64,000 nt of DNA, taken from IMG/VR virus record IMGVR_UViG_3300045988_047162. One strand, written 5' to 3'. Source of the stretch: a virus. The position numbers and the translations under genes are program-made. Numbering within the stretch: the first letter of the stretch is position 1; the number at the start of each line of letters is the position of its first letter. Below, piece after piece: positions 3,594 through 64,000 of the stretch. The notes under the pieces are model-generated. The model was not told where the DNA came from. It did not search any database and saw only the letters and a program-made list of their open reading frames with translations.

Positions 3594-3793
3594 CGTTGTT
3601 GAATCCTCCCGCGCCACCACAGGAGTTCGTTCTTGACACTGGCGGACACTGCGTGTTCCGCATCAACGAGCGGAAAGGCGCATCCATCGTCGAAAAGGAC
3701 GGAAAAAAGACGAGCACATTGTATGCGATTCCAGAATCGAAACTGGCTGCGTTCATCCAATGGGCTTCCGACGTTCACGGTCAATCACGATAG
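3590..3793 (+). CDS. hypothetical protein
   Basis: ATGA overlap with the upstream gene and protein-like composition. Confidence 0.5.
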   Translation: MTLLNPPAPPQEFVLDTGGHCVFRINERKGASIVEKDGKKTSTLYAIPESKLAAFIQWASDVHGQSR

Positions 3794-3802
3794 GAGACAG
3801 TA

Positions 3803-4333: not shown

Positions 4334-4338
4334 TTCTT

Positions 4339-4365
4339 CCCCATCCGCCTGCAACCCGGATGGGG
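4339..4365 (+). terminator. terminator-like hairpin after the first early gene set
   Basis: 9-bp stem ccccatccg / cggatgggg immediately after the stop at 4333. No T-run follows. Confidence 0.4.
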
Positions 4366-4454
4366 ACCATAAGCTTCGCCAGCCACTCCGATAAACAATC
4401 AAACAGTGGAAAATTGAACGTTTATCGAATATCCACGTTCACCGGCTGGCAAAG

Positions 4455-4478
4455 ATGGAACATCCCATGATGTTCCAT
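4455..4478. repeat. perfect 10-bp inverted repeat (hairpin)
   Basis: atggaacatc-ccat-gatgttccat, inside the 550-bp unassigned gap. Confidence 0.9.
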
Positions 4479-4885
4479 GCCGTGGCGAAACACATCCAAA
4501 CGAACCGTCACAAGCGTTTGCGTACACGCGCCGCCACGGCAATCGTCCAAGCCCACGCAGTGGGAACAGGAACCGTACCGCAAGACCATCGCCAATCGAA
4601 CCAGACACCACATCTTCTCCTGTACTCAAAGGTATCCGACGATGATCTCGAACGGTTCGCGGTCCGAATCCGCGCTTGGACGCCAGCGGCATGACGTCAA
4701 CGCCACCCATCGGGACGAAGTTTTTCACTTGGTTTTCTCCGTCCCGCATCGGGAACGATGGTCGGCCAGACTGGTTTTCCTTATTTTCCCAGTCGCCCCG
4801 CACACCCTTTTGCGAGCCAACCGTCCAGCGTCATGCCGCAACCCGCTTACACCAACCACCAATCCAAGGAAGGAGCACACACAAA

Positions 4886-5086
4886 TTGACGGCACCCATC
4901 ATCTTCGAAGACGGCATCCTCACCAAAGACGAGGCAATCGCCTTCACGAAGGTAGGAAAGAAAACATTCGACGATCTGTACGGATTTCTCGGATACCAAT
5001 CCGGCCAAAACAAACTCTTCACAAAAAAGGAACTCCTACTCCGATTCTACGAAATCAAGGACCAAGCAAAGGAGATCAAACAATGA
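4886..5086 (+). CDS. small HTH DNA-binding protein (excisionase/MerR-like fold)
   Basis: TTG start 8 nt after a GGAAGGAG RBS. Sequence ILTKDEAIAFTKVGKKTFDDLY...FTKKELLLRF. Confidence 0.5.
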   Translation: MTAPIIFEDGILTKDEAIAFTKVGKKTFDDLYGFLGYQSGQNKLFTKKELLLRFYEIKDQAKEIKQ

Positions 5087-5349
5087 CTGCCAGACGACTA
5101 GTCACCCCGAAAGACGTGCGCGACAGACAATTCCGACCCTCATTCCCATTCATGGGATACGACGCCAACCAAGTTGACGACTTCCTAGACGACTGCGCGC
5201 TCACCATCCGCACCCTCTGGAACGAGAACCGGAAACTCGCCACGGAAAACAGACGACTCCGATACGAGAACCAAACCCTCAGAACCGACGTGAGCTTCTA
5301 CAAGCTCGCAGTAGACACCATCGAACACCAACCCAAGGAACAACAATGA
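5083..5349 (+). CDS. DivIVA-domain protein
   Basis: LVTPKDVRDRQFRPSFPFMGYDANQVDDFLDD followed by a coiled coil, which is the DivIVA N-terminal signature. ATGA overlap with the upstream gene. Confidence 0.7.
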   Translation: MTARRLVTPKDVRDRQFRPSFPFMGYDANQVDDFLDDCALTIRTLWNENRKLATENRRLRYENQTLRTDVSFYKLAVDTIEHQPKEQQ

Positions 5350-30573: not shown

Positions 30574-30660
30574 GGGCAGTTGGCTGAGTCTGGTTTAAGG
30601 TAGTCGCTTCGAAAGCGACCGACTCTAACGGGTCCGGGAGTTCGAATCTCTCACTGTCCG
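30574..30660 (+). tRNA. tRNA-Ser (anticodon CGA), type II
   Basis: Hand fold: acceptor GGGCAGT/ACTGTCC (one G-U), anticodon stem GTCGC/GCGAC, loop TTCGAAA, long variable arm, T-arm GGGAG-TTCGAAT-CTCTC. Confidence 0.75.
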
Positions 30661-30747
30661 CAGATGGCATCTTCCTAGGTAAGGTGCGATTCGGTTTCAA
30701 GTCCAATGCGAGAGGCTTGTTGGTACCGCCGTTTGATCTCGCACATG

Positions 30748-30844
30748 GTTCCTATCGCTCTTGTGGGAGTGTTAGTCGCGCGTGGTTTTCTGGCTCTTCT
30801 TGACCATGCGTGGTGAGATGCCGGTTCGAATCCGGCTGGGGACC
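30748..30844 (+). ncRNA. 97-nt tRNA-like element with an aberrant anticodon region
   Basis: Acceptor GTTCCTA/TGGGGAC (two G-U), D-arm GCTC...GAGT and a perfect T-arm GCCGG-TTCGAAT-CCGGC. The anticodon arm is replaced by a roughly 10-bp stem with an 18-nt pyrimidine-rich loop. Confidence 0.4.
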
Positions 30845-31262
30845 CTTTGAGGGTGGATGAATCCCGGAATATAGTGTGTGTGTTTGGATTGTCCGTGAGA
30901 TTTTGTTCATCCTCGTTTCTTGTGCCGGTCCCACCCGGTGCCGCCTATATGGCTGCGCCATTTGTTTTTGGGGCTGACTTGCAATCCTGTTGGCACAGCC
31001 TTTTGGTTGCCGGGTTCGATTCCCGAGGTTTGCTCTAGGTTTCATGGGGTAGCTGCCTGTGATACCGATGGCATTGCTCGAATATCCCCGCTGGAACATG
31101 TGGGGGATAAGAGGCTCCCTGCCTTAATCAGGCGGTTGATGACCGAAGGGGAGGCACGGCCAAACGGGTGCATAGATGTTTCACGTTCCTTGCCGTTGGT
31201 GGTAAAGCCCATTCCACCATGCCGAACGTCTTTCCGACTTGGACGTTAACTAAGTCGGGTAT

Positions 31263-31334
31263 ATGGCATTGGTGCAACCGGTAGCATGGCGGTCTCCAAA
31301 ACCGTCGATGTTGGTTCGAGTCCAACATGCTGTG
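31263..31334 (+). tRNA. tRNA-Trp (anticodon CCA)
   Basis: Hand fold: A1-U72 acceptor ATGGCAT/ATGCTGT, anticodon arm GCGGT-CTCCAAA-ACCGT, T-arm GTTGG-TTCGAGT-CCAAC. Confidence 0.8.
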
Positions 31335-31456
31335 CTCAGCCTACCCACATGTTGTGGGAAAGGTCTTCGGAGTCGTCTTGTGGCGGCTCTAGTTTTAGCT
31401 GACCCGCCTAGTCTGCGGGAACAGTCTCCTGAGTCGTTGCGGCGGCTCTTGCTTTT

Positions 31457-31541
31457 GGATGCTTGGCAGAGTGGCTTATTGCACCACCTCGCTAAGGTGG
31501 CGACCGGGAACGGTTCGGGGGTTCGACTCCCTCAGCATCCG
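31457..31541 (+). tRNA. tRNA-Ser (anticodon GCU), type II, with C instead of U at position 33
   Basis: Perfect acceptor GGATGCT/AGCATCC, anticodon arm CCACC-TCGCTAA-GGTGG, long variable arm, T-arm GGGGG-TTCGACT-CCCTC. Confidence 0.75.
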
Positions 31542-31548
31542 CGCGCCG

Positions 31549-31574
31549 TGGCTGGCGGTAAAAAGCCATTTTTT
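31549..31574 (+). terminator. terminator-like hairpin plus T6 after tRNA-Ser(GCU)
   Basis: tggct-N10-agcca followed by tttttt. Confidence 0.4.
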
Positions 31575-31615
31575 GCCATTGGATTTCCTTATGGCGGTTT
31601 GGGTTAGATGACTGG

Positions 31616-31665
31616 CAGCCCCCATGTTTTGTGGTGAGTGTGGCGTGGGGGCTGTCTGTTCTTTT
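31616..31665 (+). terminator. 9-bp hairpin plus T-rich tail abutting tRNA-Leu
   Basis: cagccccca...tgggggctg followed by tctgttctttt. It ends 1 nt before the tRNA-Leu 5' end. Confidence 0.4.
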
Positions 31666-31746
31666 GCTTTGGTGGCGGAATGGTAGACGCGGCGCACTCA
31701 AAATGCGTTGTCCTGTGACATGAGGGTTCGATTCCCTCCTGAAGCA
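31666..31746 (+). tRNA. tRNA-Leu (anticodon CAA), type II
   Basis: Acceptor GCTTTGG/CTGAAGC (two G-U), D-region TGGCGGAATGGTAGACGC, anticodon arm GCGCA-CTCAAAA-TGCGT, T-arm GAGGG-TTCGATT-CCCTC. Confidence 0.8.
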
Positions 31747-31759
31747 CTGAGGAGTGGTG

Positions 31760-32662: not shown

Positions 32663-33088
32663 ATGGGCAGGAAGACGAGTGATTCCGGTAATCAGGTTTT
32701 GGAGATTCCTGATGGGAAGTTGGGGCCTGATTTGCCTCCGGCTAACCAGATTTTCCCCAAGGGTGGGGAGTGGTTGCCGTTGGTTGCTCATTGGTATGAG
32801 GAGTATCGGCGTAGTCCGAATGCTTCGATGTTGCGTTCGGCTCCTTCCTGGATGGCTGTCCAGTTGGGTTTCGCGACGATCAATGAGATGCTTTCGACTC
32901 GTCGTTATGCGACGTTGATGCCGGTCGTGCGTCAGTTGTTTGACGAGTTGGGTTGGACTCCGGCTTCGATGCGTGCGTTGAAGTTCGATGTGCCGGAGGC
33001 TGACGACCATGCCGCTTCGGATGGTTCGAATCATGCTGTGATTCAGGATATCGATGCTTGGCGTCGCAAGATCGAGGCGGCTGGCTGA
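32663..33088 (+). CDS. terS: terminase small subunit
   Basis: 141 aa, immediately upstream of and nearly abutting terL. Assigned by position and size. Confidence 0.6.
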   Translation: MGRKTSDSGNQVLEIPDGKLGPDLPPANQIFPKGGEWLPLVAHWYEEYRRSPNASMLRSAPSWMAVQLGFATINEMLSTRRYATLMPVVRQLFDELGWTPASMRALKFDVPEADDHAASDGSNHAVIQDIDAWRRKIEAAG

Positions 33089-33089
33089 C

Positions 33090-34973
33090 ATGCATTTGAT
33101 GATTCCTAACCTGACTTATGAGGATAGGCGTAGGAGTCTTGGACGTTTGGCGTTGTGGTGGGTTGAGACGTTCAGTCTCATCGGTCGCGGCGGTGCGACC
33201 GGTAAGCCTGTCACTCATAGTCCTGAGTATATCCAGTTCTATTTGAACGCCTATGCGTTGAAGCCGAATGGTCGGCGCAGGTTCAATCGTGTGAGCTTGT
33301 GGCGTCCGAAGGGTTGCAACAAGAGTGGTTTGGGTAATGATCTGGCCTTGTTCGAGGCTTTTGGCCCTTGTCGTTTCGACCATTGGGCTAATCCGGGTGA
33401 GACGTATACGTTTCTTGGTCAGACTTACTATTATCTGCCGGGTGAGCCTGTTGGCCGTCCTGTCCAGCGTCCTGAGATTCTGTGTTTGGCTACGTCCGAG
33501 GACCAGTCGGGCAATATCTTCGATTCGATTTACTATAACTGCACTTCCGGCCCGTTGGCCCAGTTGCAGGGTTTCGGCATGGAGGTCACGAAGACCCGTA
33601 TCGGCTTGCCGGAGGGTGGGGAGATTATTCCCACGACTTCCGGTGATGCGTCGAAGGATGGTGGTCTTGAGACTTTCGCGTTGATGGATGAGGTGCATCT
33701 GTATACGCTGCCGAAGCATCATTCGATGTATAAGACGGTTCAGCGTAATCTTCCGAAGCGTTCGTTGGATGCCGACCCTTGGGTGTTGGAGATGACGACG
33801 TATTTCCGTCCTGGTCAGAACAGTGTGGCGGAGAACACGTTGAAGATCGCGGAGGATATTCAGGCTGGCCGTTCCAAGCATTATAAGGGCTTGTATTTCG
33901 ACTATCGGTATTCGACGCTTCCTATCGAGGATTTTCCTGATGAGAAGAAGCTTGAGCACGCGTTGTATGAGTCGTATGGTTCTGCTGCCCATTCGGATGA
34001 TGGTAAGGATTACATCATTCTTCCTGATGGGCGTATCGAGGCCGTTGATGTCGATGGTTATTCGGTTGAGGGGTTCTCTCTTCGTGATGATGGTGTCGAG
34101 CCTGGGCCGTCGAAGGATGGTTGGGTTGACATTCATGGTCTGATGGGGCAGATTTACCAGCCTGATTCGGACCCGAATGATTCGATTCGTTATTATTTGA
34201 ACTCTCGTGCGTCGAGTGAGGATTCGTGGCTTACGGAGCCTGCGATCCAGTCGCATTTGGCTTACAGGGATTTGTATGGCCGTGCTGTCGGCTCGTCGTC
34301 TCGTTTGGATGGGGTCTGGAAGGATTTCATTGACGAGGATGAGGAGATCACGCTTGGGTTCGATGGTTCGATTCGTAATGATTCGACCGCGTTGGTTGGT
34401 TGTCGCGTGTCTGATGGTTTGCTGTTTCTTATCAAGTTGCAGCAGCGGCCTGATAATGCGGACCCTGATTGGCGTGTTGACCGTGATGGTTTCGATGCCG
34501 CCGTGCGTCGTATGTTCGAGAATTACAATGTCATCGGCTGTTTCGCCGATGCGCATTTTTTCGAGTCGATGATTGGCGGCTGGGAGGCTGAGTATGGGCG
34601 TGGCATGAAGGTGTTCGCCCGTGGACAGTCTTCGATGATGAAGTTTTGGACGAATAACTGGTCGCAGGATATGTATCGTGCGTTGCAGTGCGCGCATTCG
34701 TCGTTTGAGTATGCTCCCGAGCCTGTTGAGGAGGGGGAGCCTGACCCGAATAATATTCTTTTGTGTGCCGACCCGCGTCTTGTGTCGCATTTCCGTAATG
34801 CGAAGCGGCGTGAGAAGAGTTGGGGTTATCAGATTCATAAGGAGACGCCTAAGAGTCCGCACAAGATTGATGCGTGCATGGCTGGCGTTTTGGCTTATGC
34901 GGCGCGTGAGAAGTATTTGGGCCAGTTCGAGGATGAGGCTCCGCAGCGGGTGATGCCGCAGCGGGTCTGGTGA
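33090..34973 (+). CDS. terL: terminase large subunit
   Basis: Walker A-like RPKGCNKSG and Walker B-like FALMDEVH. 627 aa. Confidence 0.85.
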   Translation: MHLMIPNLTYEDRRRSLGRLALWWVETFSLIGRGGATGKPVTHSPEYIQFYLNAYALKPNGRRRFNRVSLWRPKGCNKSGLGNDLALFEAFGPCRFDHWANPGETYTFLGQTYYYLPGEPVGRPVQRPEILCLATSEDQSGNIFDSIYYNCTSGPLAQLQGFGMEVTKTRIGLPEGGEIIPTTSGDASKDGGLETFALMDEVHLYTLPKHHSMYKTVQRNLPKRSLDADPWVLEMTTYFRPGQNSVAENTLKIAEDIQAGRSKHYKGLYFDYRYSTLPIEDFPDEKKLEHALYESYGSAAHSDDGKDYIILPDGRIEAVDVDGYSVEGFSLRDDGVEPGPSKDGWVDIHGLMGQIYQPDSDPNDSIRYYLNSRASSEDSWLTEPAIQSHLAYRDLYGRAVGSSSRLDGVWKDFIDEDEEITLGFDGSIRNDSTALVGCRVSDGLLFLIKLQQRPDNADPDWRVDRDGFDAAVRRMFENYNVIGCFADAHFFESMIGGWEAEYGRGMKVFARGQSSMMKFWTNNWSQDMYRALQCAHSSFEYAPEPVEEGEPDPNNILLCADPRLVSHFRNAKRREKSWGYQIHKETPKSPHKIDACMAGVLAYAAREKYLGQFEDEAPQRVMPQRVW

Positions 34974-34988
34974 TTTTGGGGTGTTCGT

Positions 34989-36653
34989 ATGGCTTCCACA
35001 TCTTCTAATATGCAGAGTCTTGTTACTGGTGATGACGAGCCTGATGGTGATGGTTTGGCGTTGACGCGTCTTGCGACGCGTTTGCAGAATCGTATTCCTG
35101 ACCTGTGTGTGTTGAAGACGTTTTATGACGGTCGTGAGACTGTTCCGTTGCAGTCCGTGCCGAAGGCGGCGACCACTACGGCCAGTGCCGTGTATAGGCG
35201 TTTTGTGGATATCTGCCCGTTGAATCTGGCTCATACGATTGCGGATGCGGTAATCACGTCGCAGCATCCTACCGGTTTTCGTCTTGTCGCCGATAAGACG
35301 ATGCGGAGCACGGATGCGGATGACATGTGGGATAAGTGCGGCATGGATGTCCGTTCGTTGAACATGTTCATGGATGCGGCGATTTACGGTGCCGCGTATG
35401 CGATGGTTCTCGGCAAGGAGAATCCTTCGTATATCCAACGGTTGAGTCCGTGGAGCACGGTCGTGTCCGATGACAAGGATTCGGCTGTGGTGTATGGGTG
35501 GTCCGAGGAAGAGCAGATCGAACGGTTGACTTTGTATCGCATCGTCCGTAATGATGACGGTGAGATACAGAGCGTCTATTCGCGTACCGCGAAGCATGAG
35601 GTCAAGTCGCGCACGTTGCCTTCCGATTCGGTCGATGACGAGGATACCGTGTATGACCTTGCCAACGACGATTCGAAGAAGCGCCCGGAGTTCGAGGCGC
35701 AGTTCGAGTGGGAGGGCCAGTCTTCCGGCGATGATTGGAAGTTCGCCATTGATTGCGGTTGTCTTCCTATCGTGCAGTTGACCACTCCTAACGGCAAGGG
35801 CCAGTTCGAGGCTTCCTTGAAGACGTTGAGGTCCATCGACCAGCAGCGTTTTCAACGGTTCTGCATTCAGGAGATGCAGGCGTTCAAGCAGCGTTGGGTG
35901 TCGGGCGACATGCCTGAGTATTACCAGAAGAGCGACCCTGCGGTCAAGGCCGGTAAGGCTCAGGCCGGTGACAAGATCGACTATTCGGAACTGTTCGAGA
36001 TGGGTCCCGCCGCGTTGTGGCTGCTTCCCGCCGATGCGAAGATTGGCGAATCGTCCATTACGGATATCACGCCGATCGTGAATGCGGCCGCTTCCGATGT
36101 GAAGCTTCTGGCAGGTGCCACTGGCACTCCGTTGTCGATTCTTTCGCCTGATGTGGCTGGTTCCGCCGAGGGTGCGAAGCTGACGACTCGTATGCTGCGG
36201 TTGAAGGTCCGCGACATGAACATGAGGGCCAATGACGCTTTCGTGCTCCTGTTGAAGATGGCGTTGACCGCTTCCGGCAGTAATGCTTCGGAGGAGCGTT
36301 TCGAGACGACTTGGGAGCCGTTGGAGCTTCCGTCCGAGTTGGAGCAGTGTCAGGCGGCGGCTCAGGTGAAGGGTGTTCTTCCGTTGAAGACCATCGCCCG
36401 TCGCTATCTGCATATGACCGAGACGGAGATCGCGGAGATGATTCAGGATGCCCAGGATACGAGTTTCCTGAATGCCATGGCGCGGCAGAACGCGGCTTTG
36501 GATTCGTCGGCGAAGCAGACTGATGCGACGGTGAATGATTCGTATCTGGGTGACGGGTCCGGTTTGGATTCGTTCTCCACCGGCTCTGAATCGGATTCGA
36601 TGTCGTCCGATGTGCCGTCGTCGGATGATTCGTCCGACGTTATGGGGGTCTGA
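34989..36653 (+). CDS. portal protein
   Basis: 554 aa directly after terL, with an acidic Ser/Asp-rich C-terminus. Confidence 0.8.
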   Translation: MASTSSNMQSLVTGDDEPDGDGLALTRLATRLQNRIPDLCVLKTFYDGRETVPLQSVPKAATTTASAVYRRFVDICPLNLAHTIADAVITSQHPTGFRLVADKTMRSTDADDMWDKCGMDVRSLNMFMDAAIYGAAYAMVLGKENPSYIQRLSPWSTVVSDDKDSAVVYGWSEEEQIERLTLYRIVRNDDGEIQSVYSRTAKHEVKSRTLPSDSVDDEDTVYDLANDDSKKRPEFEAQFEWEGQSSGDDWKFAIDCGCLPIVQLTTPNGKGQFEASLKTLRSIDQQRFQRFCIQEMQAFKQRWVSGDMPEYYQKSDPAVKAGKAQAGDKIDYSELFEMGPAALWLLPADAKIGESSITDITPIVNAAASDVKLLAGATGTPLSILSPDVAGSAEGAKLTTRMLRLKVRDMNMRANDAFVLLLKMALTASGSNASEERFETTWEPLELPSELEQCQAAAQVKGVLPLKTIARRYLHMTETEIAEMIQDAQDTSFLNAMARQNAALDSSAKQTDATVNDSYLGDGSGLDSFSTGSESDSMSSDVPSSDDSSDVMGV

Positions 36654-53606: not shown

Positions 53607-53636
53607 CCCCACGTTTTCGTGGGGTTTTCTGTTTTT
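53607..53636 (+). terminator. rho-independent terminator/attenuator before the fibre gene
   Basis: ccccacg-tttt-cgtgggg followed by ttttctgttttt. Confidence 0.6.
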
Positions 53637-53648
53637 GGAGTGTGCGTT

Positions 53649-56600
53649 TTGGCAGACCATGTTGAAATCAGACCCGATGACGCTTCTCTTCCGTTGACTT
53701 TGGCGGATATCGCCCTGCGTAACAGCAATATGCGGTTGACGTACCTGTCCGGCACCATCGCCGTCGATAACGGCGACGGCACGGAGACGTGGATTGGCGG
53801 CGGTGATACGGGTGCGGCGATGCCGGGCAGTAATGGCATCATCCCGTGGGTTGGCGATACGACGCCTCCGGGCAGGCCGACCGGTGTGACCGCAGTGTGT
53901 AGGACGGAATGCGTGTTCGTCCAATGGGACGGCACTCTTGAGGGTGGTGTTCCCGCCGATTTCGACCATGTGAAATTGTATGCGAAGCCTGATAGCACTG
54001 GTGAATCGTTGGATTTGGGCCAGTTGCGTGGGAAAGGCGAGCTTGCCACCGGCGTGCTGCCGGTCGGTGATGTGGTCGAGGTTTGGGCCGTCGCCTATGA
54101 CAATGCGCATGACGTGAATGGCGTGTCCAAGCCGAACGCCTCCGACGAGTCGGAGCACGCGACCGTCATCATCGCACCTATCGTGTCGCAGCAGGATTTG
54201 AATGATACGGCGTCGGAGATTCTGGATGCCGCGAAGTCCGATGCCGCCGCTCAGGTGAAGAAGGTCAGCGACGGGTTGGATTCCGCCCGCAAGGATATTG
54301 ACGCGAACACTGACGCTGCGAACGCTTTGAAGAGCCAGCAGACCCAACTGCGTTCCGATTTGGATGCCGCGGCGAAGAAGATCGACGCGAACGCTCAGGG
54401 CGTCGATGCAGTCAGAAAACAGCAGGATACGGCTAACGCGGCGTTGAAGTCTCTTGGCAAGACCGTCGAGGATAACAAGTCGGCTCAGGATGCGATCAAC
54501 GCTCAACAGGCCGAGACGAACAAGACGATTGCCGCGAACAAGACGGCTTTGGCTGATGCGTCGAAACAGTTGGAACAGGCGAAGGCCGATATCAAGACGG
54601 GTCAGGCTGACTTGGCGGACGCTCGGGAGACTCTGGCCGACAATACGGCGAAGCTCGTTCAGGCTCAGAAGGATATCGCCGCGAACAAGACGGCTCAGAC
54701 TGACTTGTCGAAGCAGTTGGCTGCGGCGAAATCCGACATCAAAGCCAATCAGGACAGTCTGACCGCCGCGAATCAGACGATTGCCGCGAATCAGACGGCT
54801 TTGTCTCAAGCGCAGAAGGATATCGCCCAAACCAAGTCCGATCTGACCACGGCGAATGGCGAGATCAGCAAGGCGAAGGAGTCGGCTGCGCAGGCGTATG
54901 CCGAAGCCCATAGCAAGAATCATACGTTTCGTGGGCCGGACGAGCCGAAGGACAATCTGATTGTCGGTGACTTGTGGCTCAAGACCCAAAAATATTGGAC
55001 CCGCTGGAAGGGTGAGAAGAATAATTCGCCGTCCATGCTGGCCGACTTTTACACGTACTGGCAGGGAGCGCCGAATAATTCGCCTTCCGTGCTTGTGCCG
55101 CTGGCCGACCGCGTGATCGATACGCTTGTCTGGGATGGCTCGAATTGGAACCATCTCGGCTATGCCGATGTCGAGAAGAACGCGGACGAAATTTCCAAGG
55201 CGAAGTCGGATATCGCGGACAATGCCGCTAAGACCACGGATGCCCGCAAAGCTGCCGAGAATGCCGCTGCCGCAGCGAAGAACGCGCAGGGCACGGCTGA
55301 TACGGCCAATGGTGCGGCGAAGACCGCGCAGGATACCGCCAATGCTGCTACCGCTGCCGCCAAGAGCGCGACCGCGACCGCAGGTCAGGCGAAGAGCGCC
55401 GCCGACGCGGCGCAGACCGCAGCCGAAAGCGCGAAGAAGACCGCTGGCAATGCGGAGACTTTGGCTAACACGGCCAATGCTTCGGCCAATGCGGCCAAGT
55501 CCGACGCGGCTTCGGCCAAGACGGACGCTTCGGCTGCGAAGACCACCGCCTCGAACGCTTCGAGCGTTGCCACGCAGGCCAAGGCCACCGCAGACAGTGC
55601 GGCACAATCCGCCACCGATGCGGCCAATGCCGCGCAGAAGGCCAATACCGCAGCAGCTGCCGCCGCTGGCGTGGCCAATGGCAAGGCCGACGTGCTGATC
55701 CAGTCCACTGCGCCGGACGCTTCGATGCGCAAGGCTTCGACCTTGTGGATTGACACCACGAATGGCGCGAACACGCCGAAAAGGTGGAATGGGTCGGCTT
55801 GGGTGGCTGTGACCGACAAGGCCGCTACTGACGCCGCGAATGCGGCTGTCAAGGCGAATGATGCGGCCAAGACCGCTCAATCCACCGCTGACAAGGCGCA
55901 GACGGCTGCGGCCAATGCGGCTTCTCAGGCTAATCAGGCTCAGGCCGCCGCTCAGAAGGCGCAGACCACTGCTGATGGTAAGAACCTCATCTACCGTGGC
56001 CCCGACGAGCCGAATCATGATGGCTTGAAGCCGGGGGACATGTGGTGGCGCACGCAGAAATATTGGACGAGGTGGAAGGGTGAGAAGAACAATTCGCCGT
56101 CCATGCTGGCCGATTTTTATACGTACTGGACGGGCGCGCCGAACAACAGTCCGAGCGTCTTGGTGCCCTTGTCCGATCGTGTGGTGGAAGTCCTGACGTG
56201 GGACGGTACGAGATTCGAGCCATTCGACCTCGTGGCGAACAACATCCTCGCTGCTGGCACGGTGGCCGCGAAGCATCTCGCCGCCGACTCAGTGACCGCC
56301 GAGAAGGTCAAGGCCAATGCCATCACCGTTGACAAGCTCGCAGCCAATTCGGTCACGACCGAAAAGCTGGTCGCCGACGCGGTGACCGCTGGCAAGCTCG
56401 CTGCGGACAGCGTGCAGGCGCGCAATATCGTCGCACTGTCCATCACGTCCGACAAGATTGCAGCCAATTCCGTGACCACGGCCAAACTCCGCGTCACTGA
56501 GGATATGATGGTGGCTCTCCTGAAGGCTCATCAGATTCAGGCGGGGGATATAGCGGCTAACGCGGTCACATCAGACAATATCATAGCCAACGCCATCAAT

Positions 56601-58505
56601 TCAGGAAAGATCGCCGCCAACGCGGTGACTTCTGACAAGATTGTGACGAACGCTGTCACGTCGGATAAGATTCTCGCCAATTCGGTGACCACGGCGAAGC
56701 TCAAGGTCACTGAGGATATGACCGTCGCGCTTTTGAAGGCGCATCAGATTCAGGCCGGTGAGCTTGCCGCCAATAGTGTGACCGGTCAGAACATCAAGGC
56801 CGACGCATTGTATGGCAAGACGATTCAGGGTGGCGTGTTCCGCACGTCCGATGGGCGGATGGTCATCAATGATGCTGGTATCGTCGCCAAGGCGAAATCC
56901 GGTAGGAAACGTCAGGCGTATTACACATATTGGCAGGGCGAACCGAACAATAGTCCGTCCGTGCTGGTGACTGTGGATTTGGCTGATGATGAGTCGTTCG
57001 TACTGGATTCTCAGTCCGGCACGGTCGCCATGTGCGGTGAGATACTGTCCGGCTCCACGATCAGCGGCACGTCGATTGTGGGTAGCGAGTTCCGTACCGC
57101 GAACTCGCGCATGTTGCTGAACGATAGCGGCTTGGTGTTGCGGAACACGCAGGGCAAGGCCACTGTCACGTTGAATGCCGCGTCCGGCAGTGCGACGTTC
57201 AGTGGCACCGTGACGGGTTCGACGATCACTGGCGGCACGGTGTCCGGCGCTGTGATTACTGGTAGCGCGTTCACGTCTCCTGACGGGAAGACGAAACTGA
57301 ACTCTTCCGGCTTCTACGTGGGAGACAAACTCTCGTATGATGCTAAATCCGGCGTGCTGTCGTTGAAGGGCAGTATCCAGTCGGGGTCGGATTTGAGTGG
57401 CGTGACCGTGACCGGTTCCACCATTCAGACTTCCAGTACTGCCAACCGTGGGTTGAAGCTCACTTCCGGTGGTCTCGTCGCCTACGACGGGAATGGTAAC
57501 GCGAAGTTCACGTTGAAGTCTGACGGCACCATTCAGATGAATGGCGCTTTACTGACGAACGGTAAGATAACCGCCGCCACGTTGGAGGGTGGCACGATCA
57601 CCGGTGGAACGATTACTGGTGGCACGATTCAGTCGAGTTCCGCAGCTAATACCGGTTTCAAACTGTCCGGTGGAGCTTTGGACTTCTACGACAAGTCGAA
57701 CAATCGCACCATCCATTTGAACGGTACCGACAATCTGCTTTCCGGCAGGTTCCAGACCGCATTGTCAGGCCCACGATTGGTATTGAACAATACGACGGCC
57801 AGTGACGGCAGTGTGTATGGTCTACTGAAATGCTATGACGCGAATGGTGTCGCATGGTATACGCAGGGACAGTCGCATGGTTTCAACCCGTCGGGTCAGA
57901 ACGACCCTGGCGCTTACCGGCGTTTGAACATTGGTATTGACCCGTCGAATAGTGAATTGTCGGTCGTCCGTTTCAATTCCGGCGCTTCACGTATTCAGAT
58001 GAATGCTGGCCGTGTGGACATCAACGGTGAGGATGGTTGGTCGAAACATATCGGCGGCTTGGGTATTTACGTGAATGGTTCGCGTATCGACCCTGTCGTG
58101 TACACGGATTTGAGCGACTGGTTCGTTCCTTCGTCGGGTTGGACTGCTTACGCGGGTGATAGCGGCAAGGATTACCGCAGTCACATGACCGTGATCGGCA
58201 ACACTTGTTACATGCAGTTGGAATTGCAGCGTTCCGACAAAAAGAGCGTCACGCTCAACGCAGGCGACTACCTCGACATCGGCTGGTTCAAGGAAGGATT
58301 CACCCCGAAAATCGGCCTGAACGTGCCCTGCATCTTCAACAACGGCCAGTATGGCGGCGCGTTCGTTCCCGGAAACACGGTCCCCAGCACCGTGGACCCG
58401 GACATCAACGGCGACGGCGTGTACCTGCGCGGTCACCTCCGCGTCGGCACTCGACAGCAATCCGTCGCCTGGTGGGTTTCCGTGTTCATGATGTTCACTA
58501 TTTGA
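53649..58505 (+). CDS. giant tail fibre protein (1,618 aa)
   Basis: TTG start 8 nt after GGAG. Contains long Ala/Lys/Gln/Thr coiled-coil stretches, internally duplicated modules, (A/S)NSVT..K(L/I) repeats and Gly/Thr-rich beta-like repeats. Confidence 0.8.
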   Translation: MADHVEIRPDDASLPLTLADIALRNSNMRLTYLSGTIAVDNGDGTETWIGGGDTGAAMPGSNGIIPWVGDTTPPGRPTGVTAVCRTECVFVQWDGTLEGGVPADFDHVKLYAKPDSTGESLDLGQLRGKGELATGVLPVGDVVEVWAVAYDNAHDVNGVSKPNASDESEHATVIIAPIVSQQDLNDTASEILDAAKSDAAAQVKKVSDGLDSARKDIDANTDAANALKSQQTQLRSDLDAAAKKIDANAQGVDAVRKQQDTANAALKSLGKTVEDNKSAQDAINAQQAETNKTIAANKTALADASKQLEQAKADIKTGQADLADARETLADNTAKLVQAQKDIAANKTAQTDLSKQLAAAKSDIKANQDSLTAANQTIAANQTALSQAQKDIAQTKSDLTTANGEISKAKESAAQAYAEAHSKNHTFRGPDEPKDNLIVGDLWLKTQKYWTRWKGEKNNSPSMLADFYTYWQGAPNNSPSVLVPLADRVIDTLVWDGSNWNHLGYADVEKNADEISKAKSDIADNAAKTTDARKAAENAAAAAKNAQGTADTANGAAKTAQDTANAATAAAKSATATAGQAKSAADAAQTAAESAKKTAGNAETLANTANASANAAKSDAASAKTDASAAKTTASNASSVATQAKATADSAAQSATDAANAAQKANTAAAAAAGVANGKADVLIQSTAPDASMRKASTLWIDTTNGANTPKRWNGSAWVAVTDKAATDAANAAVKANDAAKTAQSTADKAQTAAANAASQANQAQAAAQKAQTTADGKNLIYRGPDEPNHDGLKPGDMWWRTQKYWTRWKGEKNNSPSMLADFYTYWTGAPNNSPSVLVPLSDRVVEVLTWDGTRFEPFDLVANNILAAGTVAAKHLAADSVTAEKVKANAITVDKLAANSVTTEKLVADAVTAGKLAADSVQARNIVALSITSDKIAANSVTTAKLRVTEDMMVALLKAHQIQAGDIAANAVTSDNIIANAINSGKIAANAVTSDKIVTNAVTSDKILANSVTTAKLKVTEDMTVALLKAHQIQAGELAANSVTGQNIKADALYGKTIQGGVFRTSDGRMVINDAGIVAKAKSGRKRQAYYTYWQGEPNNSPSVLVTVDLADDESFVLDSQSGTVAMCGEILSGSTISGTSIVGSEFRTANSRMLLNDSGLVLRNTQGKATVTLNAASGSATFSGTVTGSTITGGTVSGAVITGSAFTSPDGKTKLNSSGFYVGDKLSYDAKSGVLSLKGSIQSGSDLSGVTVTGSTIQTSSTANRGLKLTSGGLVAYDGNGNAKFTLKSDGTIQMNGALLTNGKITAATLEGGTITGGTITGGTIQSSSAANTGFKLSGGALDFYDKSNNRTIHLNGTDNLLSGRFQTALSGPRLVLNNTTASDGSVYGLLKCYDANGVAWYTQGQSHGFNPSGQNDPGAYRRLNIGIDPSNSELSVVRFNSGASRIQMNAGRVDINGEDGWSKHIGGLGIYVNGSRIDPVVYTDLSDWFVPSSGWTAYAGDSGKDYRSHMTVIGNTCYMQLELQRSDKKSVTLNAGDYLDIGWFKEGFTPKIGLNVPCIFNNGQYGGAFVPGNTVPSTVDPDINGDGVYLRGHLRVGTRQQSVAWWVSVFMMFTI

Positions 58506-58527
58506 TTTTGATGATTGGAGATTGATT

Positions 58528-58815
58528 ATGGCTGATAATGCCGAAACTACTACTGCGTCTGCGTCTGGCGTTTTGGATTTGCGCCCGCCGAAGGAGAGTT
58601 TGAAGGCTGAACTGTATCGTTTGGGCTTGCGGTTCACGTTTGCTCAGGATGCTGGTGAGGTTTGGCAGGATGATTCGCGTGGCGTGCGTGCAACGTTTGA
58701 TGATACTGGCCAGAGTGTCTTGTTGGAGGATATTGTCACTCACGTTACCCGCACGCTCACCTTGGACGAGCTTAAGGGCGTGACGCGTATCGACACGATG
58801 ACCGCCGCAGACTAA
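58528..58815 (+). CDS. hypothetical protein
   Basis: GGAG RBS. 95 aa. Confidence 0.5.
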   Translation: MADNAETTTASASGVLDLRPPKESLKAELYRLGLRFTFAQDAGEVWQDDSRGVRATFDDTGQSVLLEDIVTHVTRTLTLDELKGVTRIDTMTAAD

Positions 58816-58887: not shown

Positions 58888-59058
58888 TTGGCTCAGATTC
58901 CAGCCGACGCGAACGAGGTCATCGACCAGCTCTCGCAACAGATCGGCACTCTCAACAAGCAAATCGCAATCCTGACCAGTCAGCTCAACGCGGCCATGAA
59001 ATTGATTCCCGCCGACGTGCTCGAAAGCGTGAAGGGGGATACGCATGCAGAGGATTAA
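58888..59058 (+). CDS. possible 56-aa coiled-coil protein
   Basis: TTG start after an AAGGAG RBS. Sequence ...VIDQLSQQIGTLNKQIAILTSQLNAAMK... Overlaps cassette 1 by 14 nt. Below the ORF-track size cut-off. Confidence 0.4.
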   Translation: MAQIPADANEVIDQLSQQIGTLNKQIAILTSQLNAAMKLIPADVLESVKGDTHAED

Positions 59059-59512
59059 CTATTTCACCAATCCGAATTTCACCGGCCCATTCGCCGACGT
59101 AAACATTTCCGGTGAAGTGAAGGCATCATATAACGCCGACACCAAGCAGCTGAACATCTATGGCAACAATGGCGGTTATGGTTTCAATCTCACCGTGCCG
59201 AAAAACGCGGCACTCGTATTCGCCTGCTTCCTCTGGACGGAACACGACAAAAATCCGAAGCCGCTCACGGTGTACAGTCTCGAGTCAAGCGACACCAAGC
59301 CTATCGCTTATGCCACCGTCTCCCAGAATGCGAACAATTTGCTCCTGCGATTCAACTCCACCGGCAGTGGCCGGATACGTGTCGAATTCTATCCGAACGG
59401 CAGTGCCGCGAATATCGCCAATCCGATTTTGGAATTGGCCGACACTTACGATAAAGCCGTGGGGGGGGGGCTTCCGGGCTTCTTCTCCGGCGACACGATG
59501 CCACGCGCATAG
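59045..59512 (+). CDS. receptor-binding-like cassette 1 (ends ...GLPGFFSGDTMPRA)
   Basis: Paralogous C-terminus shared with the next two genes. N-terminus INYFTNPNFTG. Contains a G10 tract. Confidence 0.65.
   Translation: MQRINYFTNPNFTGPFADVNISGEVKASYNADTKQLNIYGNNGGYGFNLTVPKNAALVFACFLWTEHDKNPKPLTVYSLESSDTKPIAYATVSQNANNLLLRFNSTGSGRIRVEFYPNGSAANIANPILELADTYDKAVGGGLPGFFSGDTMPRA
59461..59470 (+). repeat. G10 homopolymer inside cassette 1
   Basis: Ten consecutive G flanked by t and c, read in frame as Gly-Gly-Gly. Lies 14 codons before the stop. Confidence 0.95.
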
Positions 59513-59539
59513 GAGCGTCCGTCGGGCGGGTGATGTCCG

Positions 59540-59908
59540 ATGATAATCACGAACCTATGCCCGAGCCCAACCTCGACCATCACCTTGAGAGCCAACAATT
59601 GGGTGCATCTCACGACCGTTCCGAGCGTGAGATATATGACATATTGGGTCAGTTTCGATATGAACGTCACAGGCGGCACTGTCTCGATTATCGGAACACA
59701 GGGCGAATTCAGCGCACGCCAACGTGTCAGCTACATGACGTACGTCGACAATTCCGGTCCGCTATCAGTGAATTATTCCGTCAAGTCAGGCAGTCCGACC
59801 GTCACCGTGACAAATATACTCCTCTGCACGTTGGCCGAGTATCAGGCGAACAAGACCCTGCTCGGCGGCATCGGATATTTCACCGGGGATACGATGCCGC
59901 GCGCCTAA
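59540..59908 (+). CDS. receptor-binding-like cassette 2 (ends ...GGIGYFTGDTMPRA)
   Basis: Shares the C-terminal motif. Confidence 0.6.
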   Translation: MIITNLCPSPTSTITLRANNWVHLTTVPSVRYMTYWVSFDMNVTGGTVSIIGTQGEFSARQRVSYMTYVDNSGPLSVNYSVKSGSPTVTVTNILLCTLAEYQANKTLLGGIGYFTGDTMPRA

Positions 59909-59927
59909 CCCCTTTGGGGGTGGTGGC

Positions 59928-60320
59928 ATGACTCCCATCGTTAATCACTGCGTCATGCCGAAAGACGGTGTGAGCGTCAAGACGACGAACACGACACCAT
60001 CGGACATCACCTTCACGGGGTTGACGGCGGGCGTGAAATACCATGTGAGCGTCGTCTGTTACATGCTGTCCACGAGTGGCGACAATCCGCGCTTGCGTCT
60101 CACCACCAATGGCAGCGATAGTGGGCTGGTCACTTCGAATGGTCGCGTGGATTACGTCTTCACCGCCGCCAGCACCACTCACGGCATTCTCGTCGGTCTG
60201 AACAATTGCACGGTCAATCTGAGCAAAGGCTTGTGCGTGCCTCAAGACCAGTGGCAGCAGCTCGTCTCGTTGGGATTGCCGGGCAATTATTTCGATGGCG
60301 ACACCATGCCAAAAGATTAA
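59928..60320 (+). CDS. receptor-binding-like cassette 3 (ends ...GLPGNYFDGDTMPKD)
   Basis: Shares the C-terminal motif. Confidence 0.6.
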   Translation: MTPIVNHCVMPKDGVSVKTTNTTPSDITFTGLTAGVKYHVSVVCYMLSTSGDNPRLRLTTNGSDSGLVTSNGRVDYVFTAASTTHGILVGLNNCTVNLSKGLCVPQDQWQQLVSLGLPGNYFDGDTMPKD

Positions 60321-60341
60321 ACGATTTCAAGGAGATGTAAT

Positions 60342-60731
60342 GTGCTGCAGAATTTTCTAGCCGGTTTCGGGGGTGTGGGTGGCGCGTGCGCCCTCATCAC
60401 GCTCGGATTGAAAGTCTGGCCGGGCGCGTTGGACGCGCTTGCAACCGGATTGTACGCGCACGTGCGGCCGGAACGCCTGCCCTATGACAGTCCGCTCTCG
60501 CAGCATTTCGCCAAGACCCGCCGCCTCGGCGAACGCACCGAGAAATTCGACGGACGTTTGGACGAGCTATGCCGGGACACGATCAAAAACACGATCATCA
60601 GCCTGATCTACGGCGACAAGGACACCGACCACAGCGAGGCCGTCAGCTACGAGCTGTCGAAGCTTGAGAAATTGGACGCGCAATGCTGGATAATCGCTGC
60701 CGCCGAAAAATACTTGGAGGACAGGCAATGA
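60342..60731 (+). CDS. membrane protein of the lysis cassette (holin-like or lysis accessory)
   Basis: GTG start after an AAGGAG RBS. N-terminal hydrophobic segment FLAGFGGVGGACALITLGL. Confidence 0.5.
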   Translation: MLQNFLAGFGGVGGACALITLGLKVWPGALDALATGLYAHVRPERLPYDSPLSQHFAKTRRLGERTEKFDGRLDELCRDTIKNTIISLIYGDKDTDHSEAVSYELSKLEKLDAQCWIIAAAEKYLEDRQ

Positions 60732-61021
60732 CGCATCTAGCCATCGCAGGCGGCGCATGCCTGCTGCTCCTCGCGCTCGTCCTCGTGTTCAATCATGGCG
60801 CGCATCAGAAGTCAGGCTCTCCGGCTGGCGCTGTCACCACGGACAAGCTGGTGGCTGACGCGGTTACGTCCGGCAAATTGGTTGCGAACAGCGTGCAGGC
60901 GCGGCACATCACCGCTCTTGCGGTCACAGCCGACAAGCTCGCGGCCAACAGCGTGACGACCGCGAAACTGCGCGTCACGGAAGATATGACGGTCGCGCTG
61001 CTCAACGCGCACTTGCGTTGA
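60728..61021 (+). CDS. membrane-anchored protein carrying a copy of the tail-fibre repeat segment
   Basis: N-terminal TM AIAGGACLLLLALVLVF. The following 62 aa are about 75% identical by eye to fibre residues ...SVTTEKLVADAVTAGKLAADSVQARNIVALSITSDKIAANSVTTAKLRVTEDMMVALLKAH... Confidence 0.55.
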   Translation: MTHLAIAGGACLLLLALVLVFNHGAHQKSGSPAGAVTTDKLVADAVTSGKLVANSVQARHITALAVTADKLAANSVTTAKLRVTEDMTVALLNAHLR

Positions 61022-61040
61022 TTTTCGCATCAGTTTTTAA

Positions 61041-61070
61041 AGCCATCCCACTTCGGGATGGCTTTTCTAT
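61041..61070 (+). terminator. hairpin plus T-run before the endolysin gene
   Basis: agccatccc-acttc-gggatggct followed by ttttctatt. Confidence 0.6.
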
Positions 61071-62629: not shown

Positions 62630-62708
62630 AAACCTTTCATTTCTCTAACATGATGTTGGAGAAGTGTAAGAATACTATGCCCAACTAGTACGTCCTGTGT
62701 ACAAGTTT

Positions 62709-62753
62709 GCCCCTCTCTCAGCGATTACGCTGGGGGAGGGGCTTTTTGTGTTT
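62709..62753 (+). terminator. rho-independent terminator (copy A of a duplicated hairpin)
   Basis: gcccctctc...gggaggggc followed by tttttgtgttt. Confidence 0.7.
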
Positions 62754-62935: not shown

Positions 62936-62938
62936 ATT

Positions 62939-62985
62939 GCCCCTCTCTTAGCTTCCGTGCTGTGGGAGGGGCTTTTCTGTGTTTT
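62939..62985 (+). terminator. rho-independent terminator (copy B of the duplicated hairpin)
   Basis: gcccctctc...gggaggggc followed by ttttctgtgtttt. Same stem as copy A with a different loop. Confidence 0.65.
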
Positions 62986-63070: not shown

Positions 63071-63409
63071 CTAGTCAGCGGTTCGATTGGCTCTATCTCC
63101 ATCGCCGAAGTCTATTTGCTGGCCCATTTGGTCGTAATAGCGACACTGATACATGTTGCAATGCTTTTCCCTGATGCAATCCACCACAGATTGCACAGCC
63201 GCATGTTTTTCAATGTCCAACTGCTGTTCGGTGATGGTTATTTTCTTCGGGAACTCGTCTTCTGGATGCCCGCCGTCGTAGCCAGCTCCGTTTATCACCA
63301 TTCTGGGCGCGTTGAGTACGTACCCATATCGTTCTACGAGTCTCAATGCTTCATCGAATCCTCGACCGTATCCTTCCTTATACGAAACTACATCAAGCTC
63401 ATGCGGCAT
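63071..63409 (-). CDS. hypothetical protein co-transcribed with the integrase
   Basis: Its start overlaps the integrase stop by 11 nt. GC looks lower than the phage average. Confidence 0.55.
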   Translation of the reverse strand: MPHELDVVSYKEGYGRGFDEALRLVERYGYVLNAPRMVINGAGYDGGHPEDEFPKKITITEQQLDIEKHAAVQSVVDCIREKHCNMYQCRYYDQMGQQIDFGDGDRANRTAD

Positions 63410-64000
63410 TTACGACACCTTTCTGTTCGATCTGCTTCAAGTCTAATGCGGAGTTCATCGTTTCCATTGCGGCCAACCGTTCTTTCAACCCGGCATGACG
63501 GTAGTGTTCGACCATCAGACGGCTGGAATGGCCCACGATTTCCTCGACCAGTCCGACATCCACGCCCATTGACATGAGGATGGTAACGACGGTATGACGG
63601 GTTTCGTGACGGCTCCTATGCTCCGCATTGGGTACTCCCGCCGCTTCCAACAGTTTGCGGAACTGTTCGATATCCTCTTCCGGTTCGATAGGGGAGCCGT
63701 CATCATGACGGAACAGGAGTCCATGCGGGTTCGGTATTTCAGCGGTATCCACCAAGTATGCTTCGAGTGTCTGCGCCAATGCGGGAATGATTGGCACTTT
63801 CCTTCCACGCTTCGATTTCGGCGGGGTGAGACACCAGCGGCCTTGCAACTCGATCATGTCGAAGCCGTCTGGAATACGCCACCTCCATTGCGGACATGCG
63901 GCACCACGCTTGTATCCGCACGGGTACACGCCTTTACGGTCTGGTTCGCCGCAACCGTGCTCCTTCTTCAACTCCTCCAGTTTCCAGTTGACGGTGTATT
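63399..64000 (-). CDS. int: tyrosine recombinase/integrase, C-terminal catalytic domain (N-terminus beyond window)
   Basis: HETRHT (HxxR box) and ...GHSSRLMVEHYRHA (catalytic Tyr region). The ORF is open to the window edge. Confidence 0.85.
   Translation of the reverse strand, partial: YTVNWKLEELKKEHGCGEPDRKGVYPCGYKRGAACPQWRWRIPDGFDMIELQGRWCLTPPKSKRGRKVPIIPALAQTLEAYLVDTAEIPNPHGLLFRHDDGSPIEPEEDIEQFRKLLEAAGVPNAEHRSRHETRHTVVTILMSMGVDVGLVEEIVGHSSRLMVEHYRHAGLKERLAAMETMNSALDLKQIEQKGVVNAA

Follow-up and report, generated by a model that had tools for sequence, protein, structure and literature searches.

In Bifidobacterium breve UCC2003, the sortase-dependent pilus operons bbr_0113 and bbr_1889 are controlled by switches that operate through slippage in G tracts (Penno et al. 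2022, PMC9187656). Here we analyse a G tract on a stretch of 64,000 nucleotides (nt) of viral DNA (IMG/VR record IMGVR_UViG_3300045988_047162), hereafter the window: the tract is located in the first of three tandem paralogous genes, referred to as cassettes 1 to 3 (59045-60320), which follow the tail fibre gene. In our assessment this locus is probably a slipped-strand switch in an array of three modules resembling carbohydrate-binding modules (CBMs), positioned where the tail-gene block of a Bifidobacterium prophage ends. The pilus switches share with it the host genus, a G9-G12 tract in the first coding sequence of the cluster and the principle that tract length sets the frame, and for them the heterogeneity of tract lengths within populations has been measured experimentally. 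They differ in being two-state ON/OFF devices that fuse two halves of one gene, whereas the window locus belongs to a prophage, has both out-of-frame states wired to the starts of paralogues and contains a selected overlapping frame of 122 codons.

Mutable repeats are also encoded by phages. Sorensen et al. (2021, Cell Reports; cited in PMC10877375) reportedly described hypermutable polyG tracts in receptor-binding genes of Campylobacter phages, which affect host recognition. Contingency loci have likewise been described in phages T2 and T4 (Gomez et al. 2025, bioRxiv 10.1101/2025.10.21.683753). Like the window locus, the loci of the Campylobacter phages and of T2 and T4 consist of a phage-encoded repeat that undergoes reversible frameshifts, there with phenotypic heterogeneity as the outcome; unlike it, they result in ON/OFF expression or truncation of single genes, and the host of the window phage is a Gram-positive actinobacterium. 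Neither a relay of ribosomes to alternative cassettes nor selection on an overlapping frame is, to our knowledge, known in the Campylobacter phage or T2/T4 loci.

Bifidoprophages are known to vary their receptor-binding proteins (RBPs) by means of the tyrosine-recombinase shufflon Rin (Mavrich et al. 2018, PMC6109161); the terms 'homopolymer', 'slippage' and 'poly' are absent from the main text of that paper. Rin and the systems Gin (Mu), Cin (P1) and Min (p15B) resemble the array in that alternative receptor-binding modules are arranged side by side 3′ of the tail genes and give rise to heterogeneous populations. In contrast to these systems, the array contains no invertase, inverted cassettes or crossover repeats, its units are stand-alone genes and not alternative C-termini, and it switches by frame, whereas Gin, Cin, Min and Rin switch by DNA inversion. 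Free-standing organization likewise distinguishes the cassettes from the CBM modules at siphophage tail tips (BppA of Tuc2009/TP901-1, 'evolved' Dit/Tal, minor tail proteins of actinophages): the two have in common a beta-sandwich of about 120-150 amino acids (aa) and a distal tail location, but the cassettes match no sequence family in the Pfam and PHROG scans, end in a shared C-terminal tail and are phase-variable.

Three-frame editing at a homopolymer is found on RNA in the paramyxovirus P/V/W genes (G insertion) and at the A7 site of Ebolavirus GP/sGP/ssGP. In these cases, too, one homopolymer provides three productive frames with distinct outputs, which makes them the nearest functional analogy; however, they depend on stuttering of the RNA polymerase and produce alternative C-terminal domains of one protein, whereas the length of the window tract varies at the DNA level and its frames appear to be conduits to separate genes. 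In Haemophilus influenzae, lic1-type repeats connect to start codons in more than one frame and thereby create more than two expression states. The several productive frames are a common feature, but lic1 grades the level of a single gene via alternative upstream ATGs, while the frames of the window tract lead to different downstream genes. A full-text literature search combining homopolymer, translational coupling and three frames returned nothing comparable, nor do we know of any published contingency locus that connects its two out-of-frame states through stop-start overlaps to other genes, or of an overlapping frame maintained solely as a ribosome conduit. Contingency tracts as such are thus familiar; what is new here is that the out-of-frame states are routed by stop-start overlaps to paralogues, in one case via a synonymously selected conduit frame.

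The polyG tract, its variation and the frames it opens

The three cassettes are co-oriented ORFs (open reading frames) of 155, 122 and 130 aa that share the C-terminal motif ..[YF]FxGDTMPxx, just as the initial annotation had described them, with variable bodies and conserved tails. Their layout is as follows.

59045-59512, plus strand: cassette 1, 155 aa, MQRINYFTNPNFTG...GLPGFFSGDTMPRA up to the stop; predicted CBM-like beta-sandwich body, GGG linker, tail LPGFFSGDTMPRA
59461-59470, plus strand: G10 homopolymer, encoding the GGG linker that joins body and tail of cassette 1
59471-59543, plus strand: +1 path (window frame 0), entered at G9; open to the TGA at 59541-59543 inside the cassette 2 ATGA
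59471-59931, plus strand: -1 path (window frame 1), entered when one G is gained or two are lost; ends with the TGA at 59929-59931 in the cassette 3 ATGA
59513-59539, plus strand: spacer from the cassette 1 stop to the cassette 2 ATG, 27 nt, with the Shine-Dalgarno (SD)-like sequence GGGTGAT
59540-59908, plus strand: cassette 2, 122 aa, ...GGIGYFTGDTMPRA up to the stop; variable body, tail GIGYFTGDTMPRA; its -1 frame is stop-free
59909-59927, plus strand: spacer from the cassette 2 stop to the cassette 3 ATG, 19 nt, with the SD-like sequence GGGGGTGGTGG and a possible small hairpin
59928-60320, plus strand: cassette 3, 130 aa, ...GLPGNYFDGDTMPKD up to the stop; predicted beta-sandwich, helix 106-114, tail LPGNYFDGDTMPKD

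The G10 tract is the sole homopolymer of at least 8 bases and the sole run of at least 7 G or C in the 64 kb window. GGG accounts for only 10% of the Gly codons in window genes, yet three GGG codons are kept in the tract. To compare the locus across relatives, 160 further loci were collected by the tail motif, blind to the state of the tract, and a tract of at least G5 was present at the homologous site in 169 of 170 loci. Among about 147 unique related loci its length ranges from G6 to G14. Loci with identical flanks differ in the tract alone: G7 (L005), G9 (L003, L004), G10 (window) and G11 (L006) were found, one flank-identical group holds both G8 and G9, and loci with at most 4 mismatches per 1250 nt to the window carry G10, G9, G8 or G7. 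Moreover, each of several cassette 1 alleles, whose bodies differ considerably, is found with tracts of n, n-1 and n+1 Gs, and an interrupted tract (G4TG4) with identical flanks also occurs among the public cassette 1 homologues. A state could be assigned in 144 of the 147 unique loci: 94 carry an in-frame tract, 31 represent the +1 state and 19 the -1 state, so that 50 are out of frame. Out-of-frame loci retain an intact downstream tail coding sequence (LPGFF.GDTMP).

The same states are encountered in public protein data, where the in-frame homologues of cassette 1 measure 155 aa, or 154 aa if a Gly is missing, where the other frame gives 180 aa, and where a frameshifted 165-aa form, ...GGGFRASSP...RRAGDVR, makes up clusters of 121, 209 and 183 members. 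The type-strain assembly of B. ruminantium DSM 6489 combines an unrelated 141-aa body with the same ADTYDxAVGGG tract, in the +1 state. In B. breve, replication slippage has been reported to occur at high frequency in G10 and G11 tracts and, for tracts of G10-G12, to reach as much as tens of percent within a population (PMC9187656). The mutable repeat, the differences between near-identical genomes and the preserved coding potential all point to the window tract being a slipped-strand contingency locus. In the related loci L055, L061, L125 and L126 (e.g., L061 at 3435-5318) we observed a duplicated unit in the order cassette 1, 2, 1′, 2′, to which L061 adds a further cassette 3; the tract of L061 is G14. 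The second tail in these loci reads ..GGYPRFFSGDTMPLG, which suggests that they possess a second G tract.

Both alternative frames end at the start of a paralogue. If one G is removed in silico (G9), a tail-less cassette 1 of 165 aa results, whose stop lies within the cassette 2 ATGA; in the window this frame 0 forms an ORF (59160-59543) that overlaps the cassette 2 ATG at 59540, and public 165-aa products of the +1 path exist (P0021, P0034, P0042). Simulated G11 yields a product of 295 aa, which passes through the GTG at 59530 and crosses the spacer and all of cassette 2; frame 1 is blocked 3 codons 5′ of the tract and becomes open with the tract itself, and products of 295-301 aa are again found publicly (P0152, P0157, P0167, P0197). 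These are the two alternative frames, one past the G10 tract and one over cassette 2 from 59530, that the initial annotation had reported to stop in the ATGAs of cassettes 2 and 3, and both TGAs were recovered. Across relatives, both ATGA terminations are present in 103 of the 116 loci with at least three recognisable cassettes. In the eight apparent two-cassette loci that were inspected, the same ATGA leads to a third allele, whose tail has diverged (...YGGLMPLQN), and in loci without cassette 2 the -1 path terminates at a cassette-3-type start. The spacer between cassettes 1 and 2 measures 27 nt in nearly all loci and 24 nt in 4, that between cassettes 2 and 3 measures 19 or 22 nt; consequently, insertions and deletions come exclusively in whole triplets.

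The -1 frame of cassette 2 was stop-free in 109 of 112 unique DNAs, whereas the corresponding frame was open in 0 of 74 cassette 3 and 0 of 55 cassette 1 sequences and in 1.3% of 123-codon windows from other window genes. In about 17 full-length cassette 2 clusters (<80% identity), each has 0 stops in the -1 frame, while the +1 frame holds 5-9 stops, as expected. Shuffling of synonymous codons in cassette 2 predicts 1.6-4.3 stops, with P(0) of 0.002-0.15, values that are not independent of each other as the clusters are related by descent. The frame is open because T at the third codon position (T3) is nearly absent before AA, AG and GA codons: it occurs there in 3 of 3012 cases compared with 16.6% at other positions, whereas the same contrast amounts to 10.0% vs 22.9% in cassette 3, 11.0% vs 13.8% in cassette 1 and 18.3% vs 25.6% in other genes. 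At the start of cassette 3, the second codon begins with A in 86 of 86 unique DNAs, which preserves the ATGA, and where this codon encodes Ser, AGY is used in 45 of 45 cases against a general AGY usage of 26.5%. As judged from these comparisons, purifying selection maintains the openness of the -1 path, both stop-start overlaps and their phase. The same organization is seen again in over 140 unique related loci with clear selection signatures, which places the pattern far beyond chance. The evidence indicates that the G10 tract is the switch and the alternative frames are its wiring; the initial annotation had proposed no switching mechanism.

What is selected appears to be the openness of the frame and not a second protein, because the alternative-frame peptides, which are rich in R, H and D and of low complexity, diverge freely, as fast as cassette 2 itself, and because the proportion of synonymous differences (pS) in cassette 2 is not strongly depressed. 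With a pS of 0.126 and a ratio of non-synonymous to synonymous differences (pN/pS) of about 1.2, its synonymous sites are not strongly constrained beyond the avoidance of stops. An overlapping protein-coding gene in the -1 frame was considered and is disfavoured by peptide composition, divergence and pS/pN.

Fold and relationships of the cassettes

The paralogy of the cassettes is real but distant: cassettes 1 and 2 align in BLASTP with E = 3e-6 and 32% identity over 97 aa, the similarity between cassettes 2 and 3 is confined to the tail, and the invariant columns of the alignment are N5, P10 and the F-x-G-D-T-x-P tail. When cassettes and neighbours were scanned, no Pfam, PHROG, NCBIfam or PADLOC model matched the cassettes above threshold, and the PADLOC scan thus yielded no matches to defence families. 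The cassette family comprises 1452 clusters at 90% identity, all unnamed, some of which hold hundreds of members. A profile search among 1.84 billion proteins retrieved only 53 representatives at E <= 1e-3, nearly all of them stand-alone proteins of 120-165 aa that belong to the same family or are frameshifted forms of it; the few long matches are weak (E above 1e-7) and concern repetitive proteins. Matches in genomes are limited to B. ruminantium DSM 6489, one metagenome-assembled genome (MAG) of Bifidobacterium and two Collinsella MAGs, which are possibly mis-binned. In the phage database only two matches emerged, the unannotated faecal contig MT836445 (88.5% identity) and Bifidobacterium phage PMBT6, the latter for the 129-aa gene downstream of the array only.

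AlphaFold2 models were obtained for cassettes 1 and 3, to which all statements on the fold refer. The model of cassette 1 (pLDDT, the predicted local distance difference test score, 75.5; pTM, the predicted template modelling score, 0.74) features a beta-sandwich of about ten strands (residues about 19-131), a helix (132-140) and the conserved tail, which is disordered; the conserved N-terminal 11 residues are also of low confidence. Cassette 3 (pLDDT 79.9) is predicted to follow the same plan. In Foldseek searches, cassette 1 matched CBM70, CBM22, CBM61, CBM16 and a porphyran CBM with E values of 2e-6 to 1e-4 and template modelling (TM) scores of 0.5-0.62, and its neighbours further include lectin-like domains of Cry and Vip3 and the CBM of a Klebsiella phage tailspike. 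Within BFVD, it adjoins CBM-like domains of phage tails, among them Dit of Lactococcus phage P078, a minor tail protein of Arthrobacter phage KellEzio and CenC-like phage domains. For CBM70, CBM22, CBM16, the porphyran CBM and the phage tail CBM domains taken together, the TM scores amount to 0.55-0.62. The models thus support a jelly-roll, CBM-like character of cassettes 1 and 3 at the level of the fold only. This much of the initial annotation, which had likened the opening of cassette 1 to the N-L-x-x-N-P-S-F-E strand of CBM-type modules in actinophage minor tail proteins, modules that typically end with YFDG, is borne out, while family membership found no confirmation: no curated CBM or Pfam family was assigned to the cassettes at the thresholds of Pfam, PHROG and NCBIfam.

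The bodies of the cassettes are variable and their tails conserved (pN/pS 0.7-1.2); in cassette 2, the entropy is 1.34 bits for the body and 0.65 bits for the tail. Variation of this kind would be expected if the modules connect to an invariant partner on one side and meet a changing ligand on the other. From the CBM-like fold, the position behind the fibre gene, the phase variability and the combination of diversifying bodies with constant termini, we infer that the cassettes are interchangeable glycan-binding adhesion modules, which would dock to the virion via the shared tail and serve in receptor binding. Of the initial proposal, the stand-alone paralogous modules with a conserved C-terminal tail are supported, and the docking and host-range roles are putative.

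Proposed switching mechanism and competing explanations

The mechanism we propose would be initiated by replication slippage, which changes the length of the polyG tract at the body-tail junction of cassette 1. With an in-frame tract (G10 or G7), cassette 1 would be produced with its tail. At G9, a tail-less cassette 1 would be made and the ribosomes would terminate at the TGA of the cassette 2 ATGA. At G11 or G8, cassette 1 would again be tail-less, and the ribosomes would cross the start and body of cassette 2 in the -1 frame, thereby occluding that start, and terminate at the TGA of the cassette 3 ATGA. Termination-reinitiation at the ATGA would pass ribosomes to cassette 2 in the +1 state and to cassette 3 in the -1 state, so that frame shifts would favour cassette 1, then 2, then 3. 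The cassettes would attach to the virion through their shared tail and bind glycans, and the switch would diversify host recognition inside the phage population. To the more specific claim that the single homopolymer acts as a three-position selector, in which every frame delivers ribosomes to a different adhesin cassette, we attach slightly less than even weight; under this claim, a population could contain three receptor-specificity types without a recombinase, generated by replication slippage and perhaps by transcriptional slippage.

Several points weigh against this mechanism. Cassettes 2 and 3 may initiate independently in every state: their SD-like sequences are predicted to form duplexes with the 16S tail of -13.2 and -15.2 kcal/mol, respectively, which places them among the strongest in the region and led us to reject the idea that weak SD sequences make a case for coupling. 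The predicted RNA folds over the two starts are no stabler than those of shuffled sequences (z = -0.9 and -0.4), and RNAalifold returned small hairpins over them without compensatory pairs. As to the role of the cassettes, the Foldseek matches of cassette 3 are weaker than those of cassette 1 (the EclA lectin domain and CBM4, TM 0.4-0.5), and the shared tail may belong to the fold as a structural strand instead of acting as a docking peptide. The common descent of the clusters in the shuffle test also belongs here, as does the fact that G-tract lengths are prone to error in short-read Illumina assemblies (PMC9187656).

The last point would be decisive if the tract differences were sequencing or assembly errors and the open frames a product of GC-rich composition; such DNA does yield spurious ORFs, for instance one of 1038 aa antisense to the fibre gene. 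This explanation is strongly disfavoured, to the point that we consider it scarcely credible: lengths extend from G6 to G14 with differences of 2-4 nt, a type-strain assembly (B. ruminantium) is in the +1 state, the openness of the -1 frame in cassette 2 far exceeds the three controls given above, and the +1 frame of the same gene contains the expected number of stops. Miscalled homopolymers can account neither for G7, G8 or G14 nor for the selection signatures. A more serious competitor, though in our view an unlikely one, is ON/OFF phase variation of cassette 1 alone, with the open frames and ATGAs serving as a fail-safe instead of a choice between cassettes: out-of-frame ribosomes would stay on the mRNA and thereby spare cassette 3, the 129-aa gene, the endolysin and the holin from Rho-dependent polarity or mRNA decay. 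This explanation accommodates the variation of the tract and the open frames equally well, the strong SD-like sequences could provide cassettes 2 and 3 in all states, and essential lysis genes are located directly downstream. However, with constant translation of cassette 2 from its own start, this gene would already be covered by ribosomes, which would reach cassette 3 anyway, and the near-absolute selection on the -1 frame (3/3012) would hardly be needed; this selection therefore argues, if indirectly, for a dependence of downstream cassettes on upstream translation. The exact overlaps with two different paralogues and the exclusive use of AGY for Ser, moreover, suggest a hand-over and not mere coverage.

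Both remaining explanations concern the products. The 165-aa and 295-aa forms might be functional isoforms with alternative C-termini, comparable to paramyxovirus P/V/W, the -1 frame being truly coding. That this frame stays open in diverged lineages and that public data list products of 295-301 aa would be in line with such isoforms, but the low-complexity composition of the alternative-frame peptides, their divergence at the rate of cassette 2 and the pS and pN/pS of that gene, where openness is conserved and sequence is not, render them very improbable. Somewhat less remote, yet still improbable, is the possibility that the cassettes are cell-wall-binding lysis accessories or prophage 'moron' proteins and that the polyG tract varies a trait of the lysogen: they are positioned immediately 5′ of the lysis module, and a CBM-like fold would suit cell-wall binding equally well. 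Against this, the array is constant while the endolysin varies (GH25-CW7-LysM vs ELLD/NlpC-P60), both lysin types carry wall-binding domains of their own, no signal peptides are evident by eye in the cassettes, defence-family matches are lacking in the PADLOC scan, and the array adjoins the tail fibre block without interruption and in the same orientation.

If the proposed slipped-strand switch is correct, it would constitute a second system of RBP diversification in bifidoprophages, unrelated to the Rin shufflon, and would extend contingency loci from ON/OFF devices to a three-way selector that uses all frames. As bifidobacteria are key gut commensals whose phages are hard to propagate, it would also help to explain cryptic or shifting host ranges. 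The conduit frame would represent a clean natural case of synonymous-site selection solely for an open overlapping frame, and the combination of homopolymer and ATGA relay is simple enough in design for reuse in synthetic biology. With its 1452 clusters, the locus is common in human gut metagenomes, and the state of the tract should therefore be readable from data already available, where it could serve to follow the dynamics of phage populations.

Flanking genes and the region 3′ of the array

The array is co-oriented and contiguous with the tail fibre block, with genes that overlap or are closely spaced. The fibre gene itself (53619-58505, 1628 aa) has PHROG tail-fibre matches and is followed by two small genes and then by the cassettes; 3′ of these lie the 129-aa gene, an endolysin of the composition GH25-CW_7-LysM and a Dp-1-type holin.

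58522-58815, plus strand: 97-aa gene directly 3′ of the fibre gene, with starts TTG 58522 and ATG 58528; kept in related loci
58888-59058, plus strand: predicted coiled-coil protein of 56 aa; the end of its gene shares 14 nt with the start of cassette 1
60342-60731, plus strand: 129-aa protein, the first gene past the array, with a hydrophobic N-terminal segment (by eye); conserved before the endolysin

For the 97-aa gene, the Pfam, PHROG, NCBIfam and PADLOC scans gave no family match. Its C-terminus ..TRIDTMTAAD (tail AVTRIDTMTAAD in 181 ORF matches) is near-invariant in about 200 related ORFs and resembles the GDTMPxx tail of the cassettes; judging from this resemblance, the protein may be a further partner or a competitor at their docking site. 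In the related loci L003, L005 and L171-L178, an extra gene of 182-189 aa is inserted between the fibre gene and the gene of about 100 aa, whereas the window (58505-58522) is without it. The 56-aa protein shows a weak match to the LPP leucine zipper (E = 0.002) and occupies the same position in related loci. A 'GDT' tail shared between it and the cassettes was dropped from consideration, as its relatives instead read GDENAED, ETDNAED and others.

The 129-aa gene is 83% identical at the nucleotide level to the gene of the hypothetical protein QDF14892 of PMBT6. Among the public homologues of cassette 3, a few small clusters show frameshifts that no obvious homopolymer accompanies (P0136, P0139, P0142-P0147; window 59928-60340), and one alternative frame of cassette 3, ..FRWRHHAKRLNDFKEM, ends with a TAA at 60338-60340, 1 nt before the GTG of the 129-aa gene. 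The stop of the 129-aa gene is overlapped (ATGA) by the ATG of a 97-aa ORF (60728-61021, plus strand), which has a hydrophobic N-terminal segment by eye and is followed by a hairpin with a T-run at about 61027-61070. After this segment, the ORF contains 'xxVTxxKLxAxSV' repeats, which are 75% identical in DNA to part of the fibre gene (56352-56530). The gene thus has the appearance of a membrane-anchored fibre repeat copy located directly before the endolysin; roles as a decoy, in exclusion or as a lysis accessory are conceivable.

The initial annotation had envisaged modular host range without an invertase and stated that no recombinase is nearby. The former is in keeping with the co-oriented cassettes and the lack of crossover inverted repeats; the latter has to be corrected, given that the C-terminal catalytic part of a tyrosine recombinase is encoded 3 kb 3′ of the cassettes (63399-63971, minus strand) and extends towards the end of the window. 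Its position past the holin and the comparison with related loci, in which a Phage_integrase of 451-455 aa takes this place, identify it as the prophage integrase and not an invertase. A search for inverted repeats flanking the cassettes retrieved none, only weak scattered ones of 16-30 nt with 72-94% complementarity. An invertase or shufflon was therefore rejected: the cassettes are co-oriented, flanking inverted repeats are missing and there is no recombinase other than the integrase, which lies past the lysis genes. The adjacency of lysis genes and integrase suggests that the prophage attachment junction is located between about 62630 and 63400.

Two GC-rich, hairpin-like copies of 40 nt, 80% identical to each other (62707-62746 and 62937-62976; TTGCCCCTCTC...GGGGAGGGGCTTTT), flank a 53-aa ORF between holin and integrase and resemble a terminator or a small mobile repeat. 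Farther upstream in the window, four tRNA genes (Ser-CGA, Trp-CCA, Ser-GCT and Leu-CAA; 30574-31747, plus strand) precede the ORFs at 33054-36653, which by size and order only are provisionally assigned as terminase and portal.

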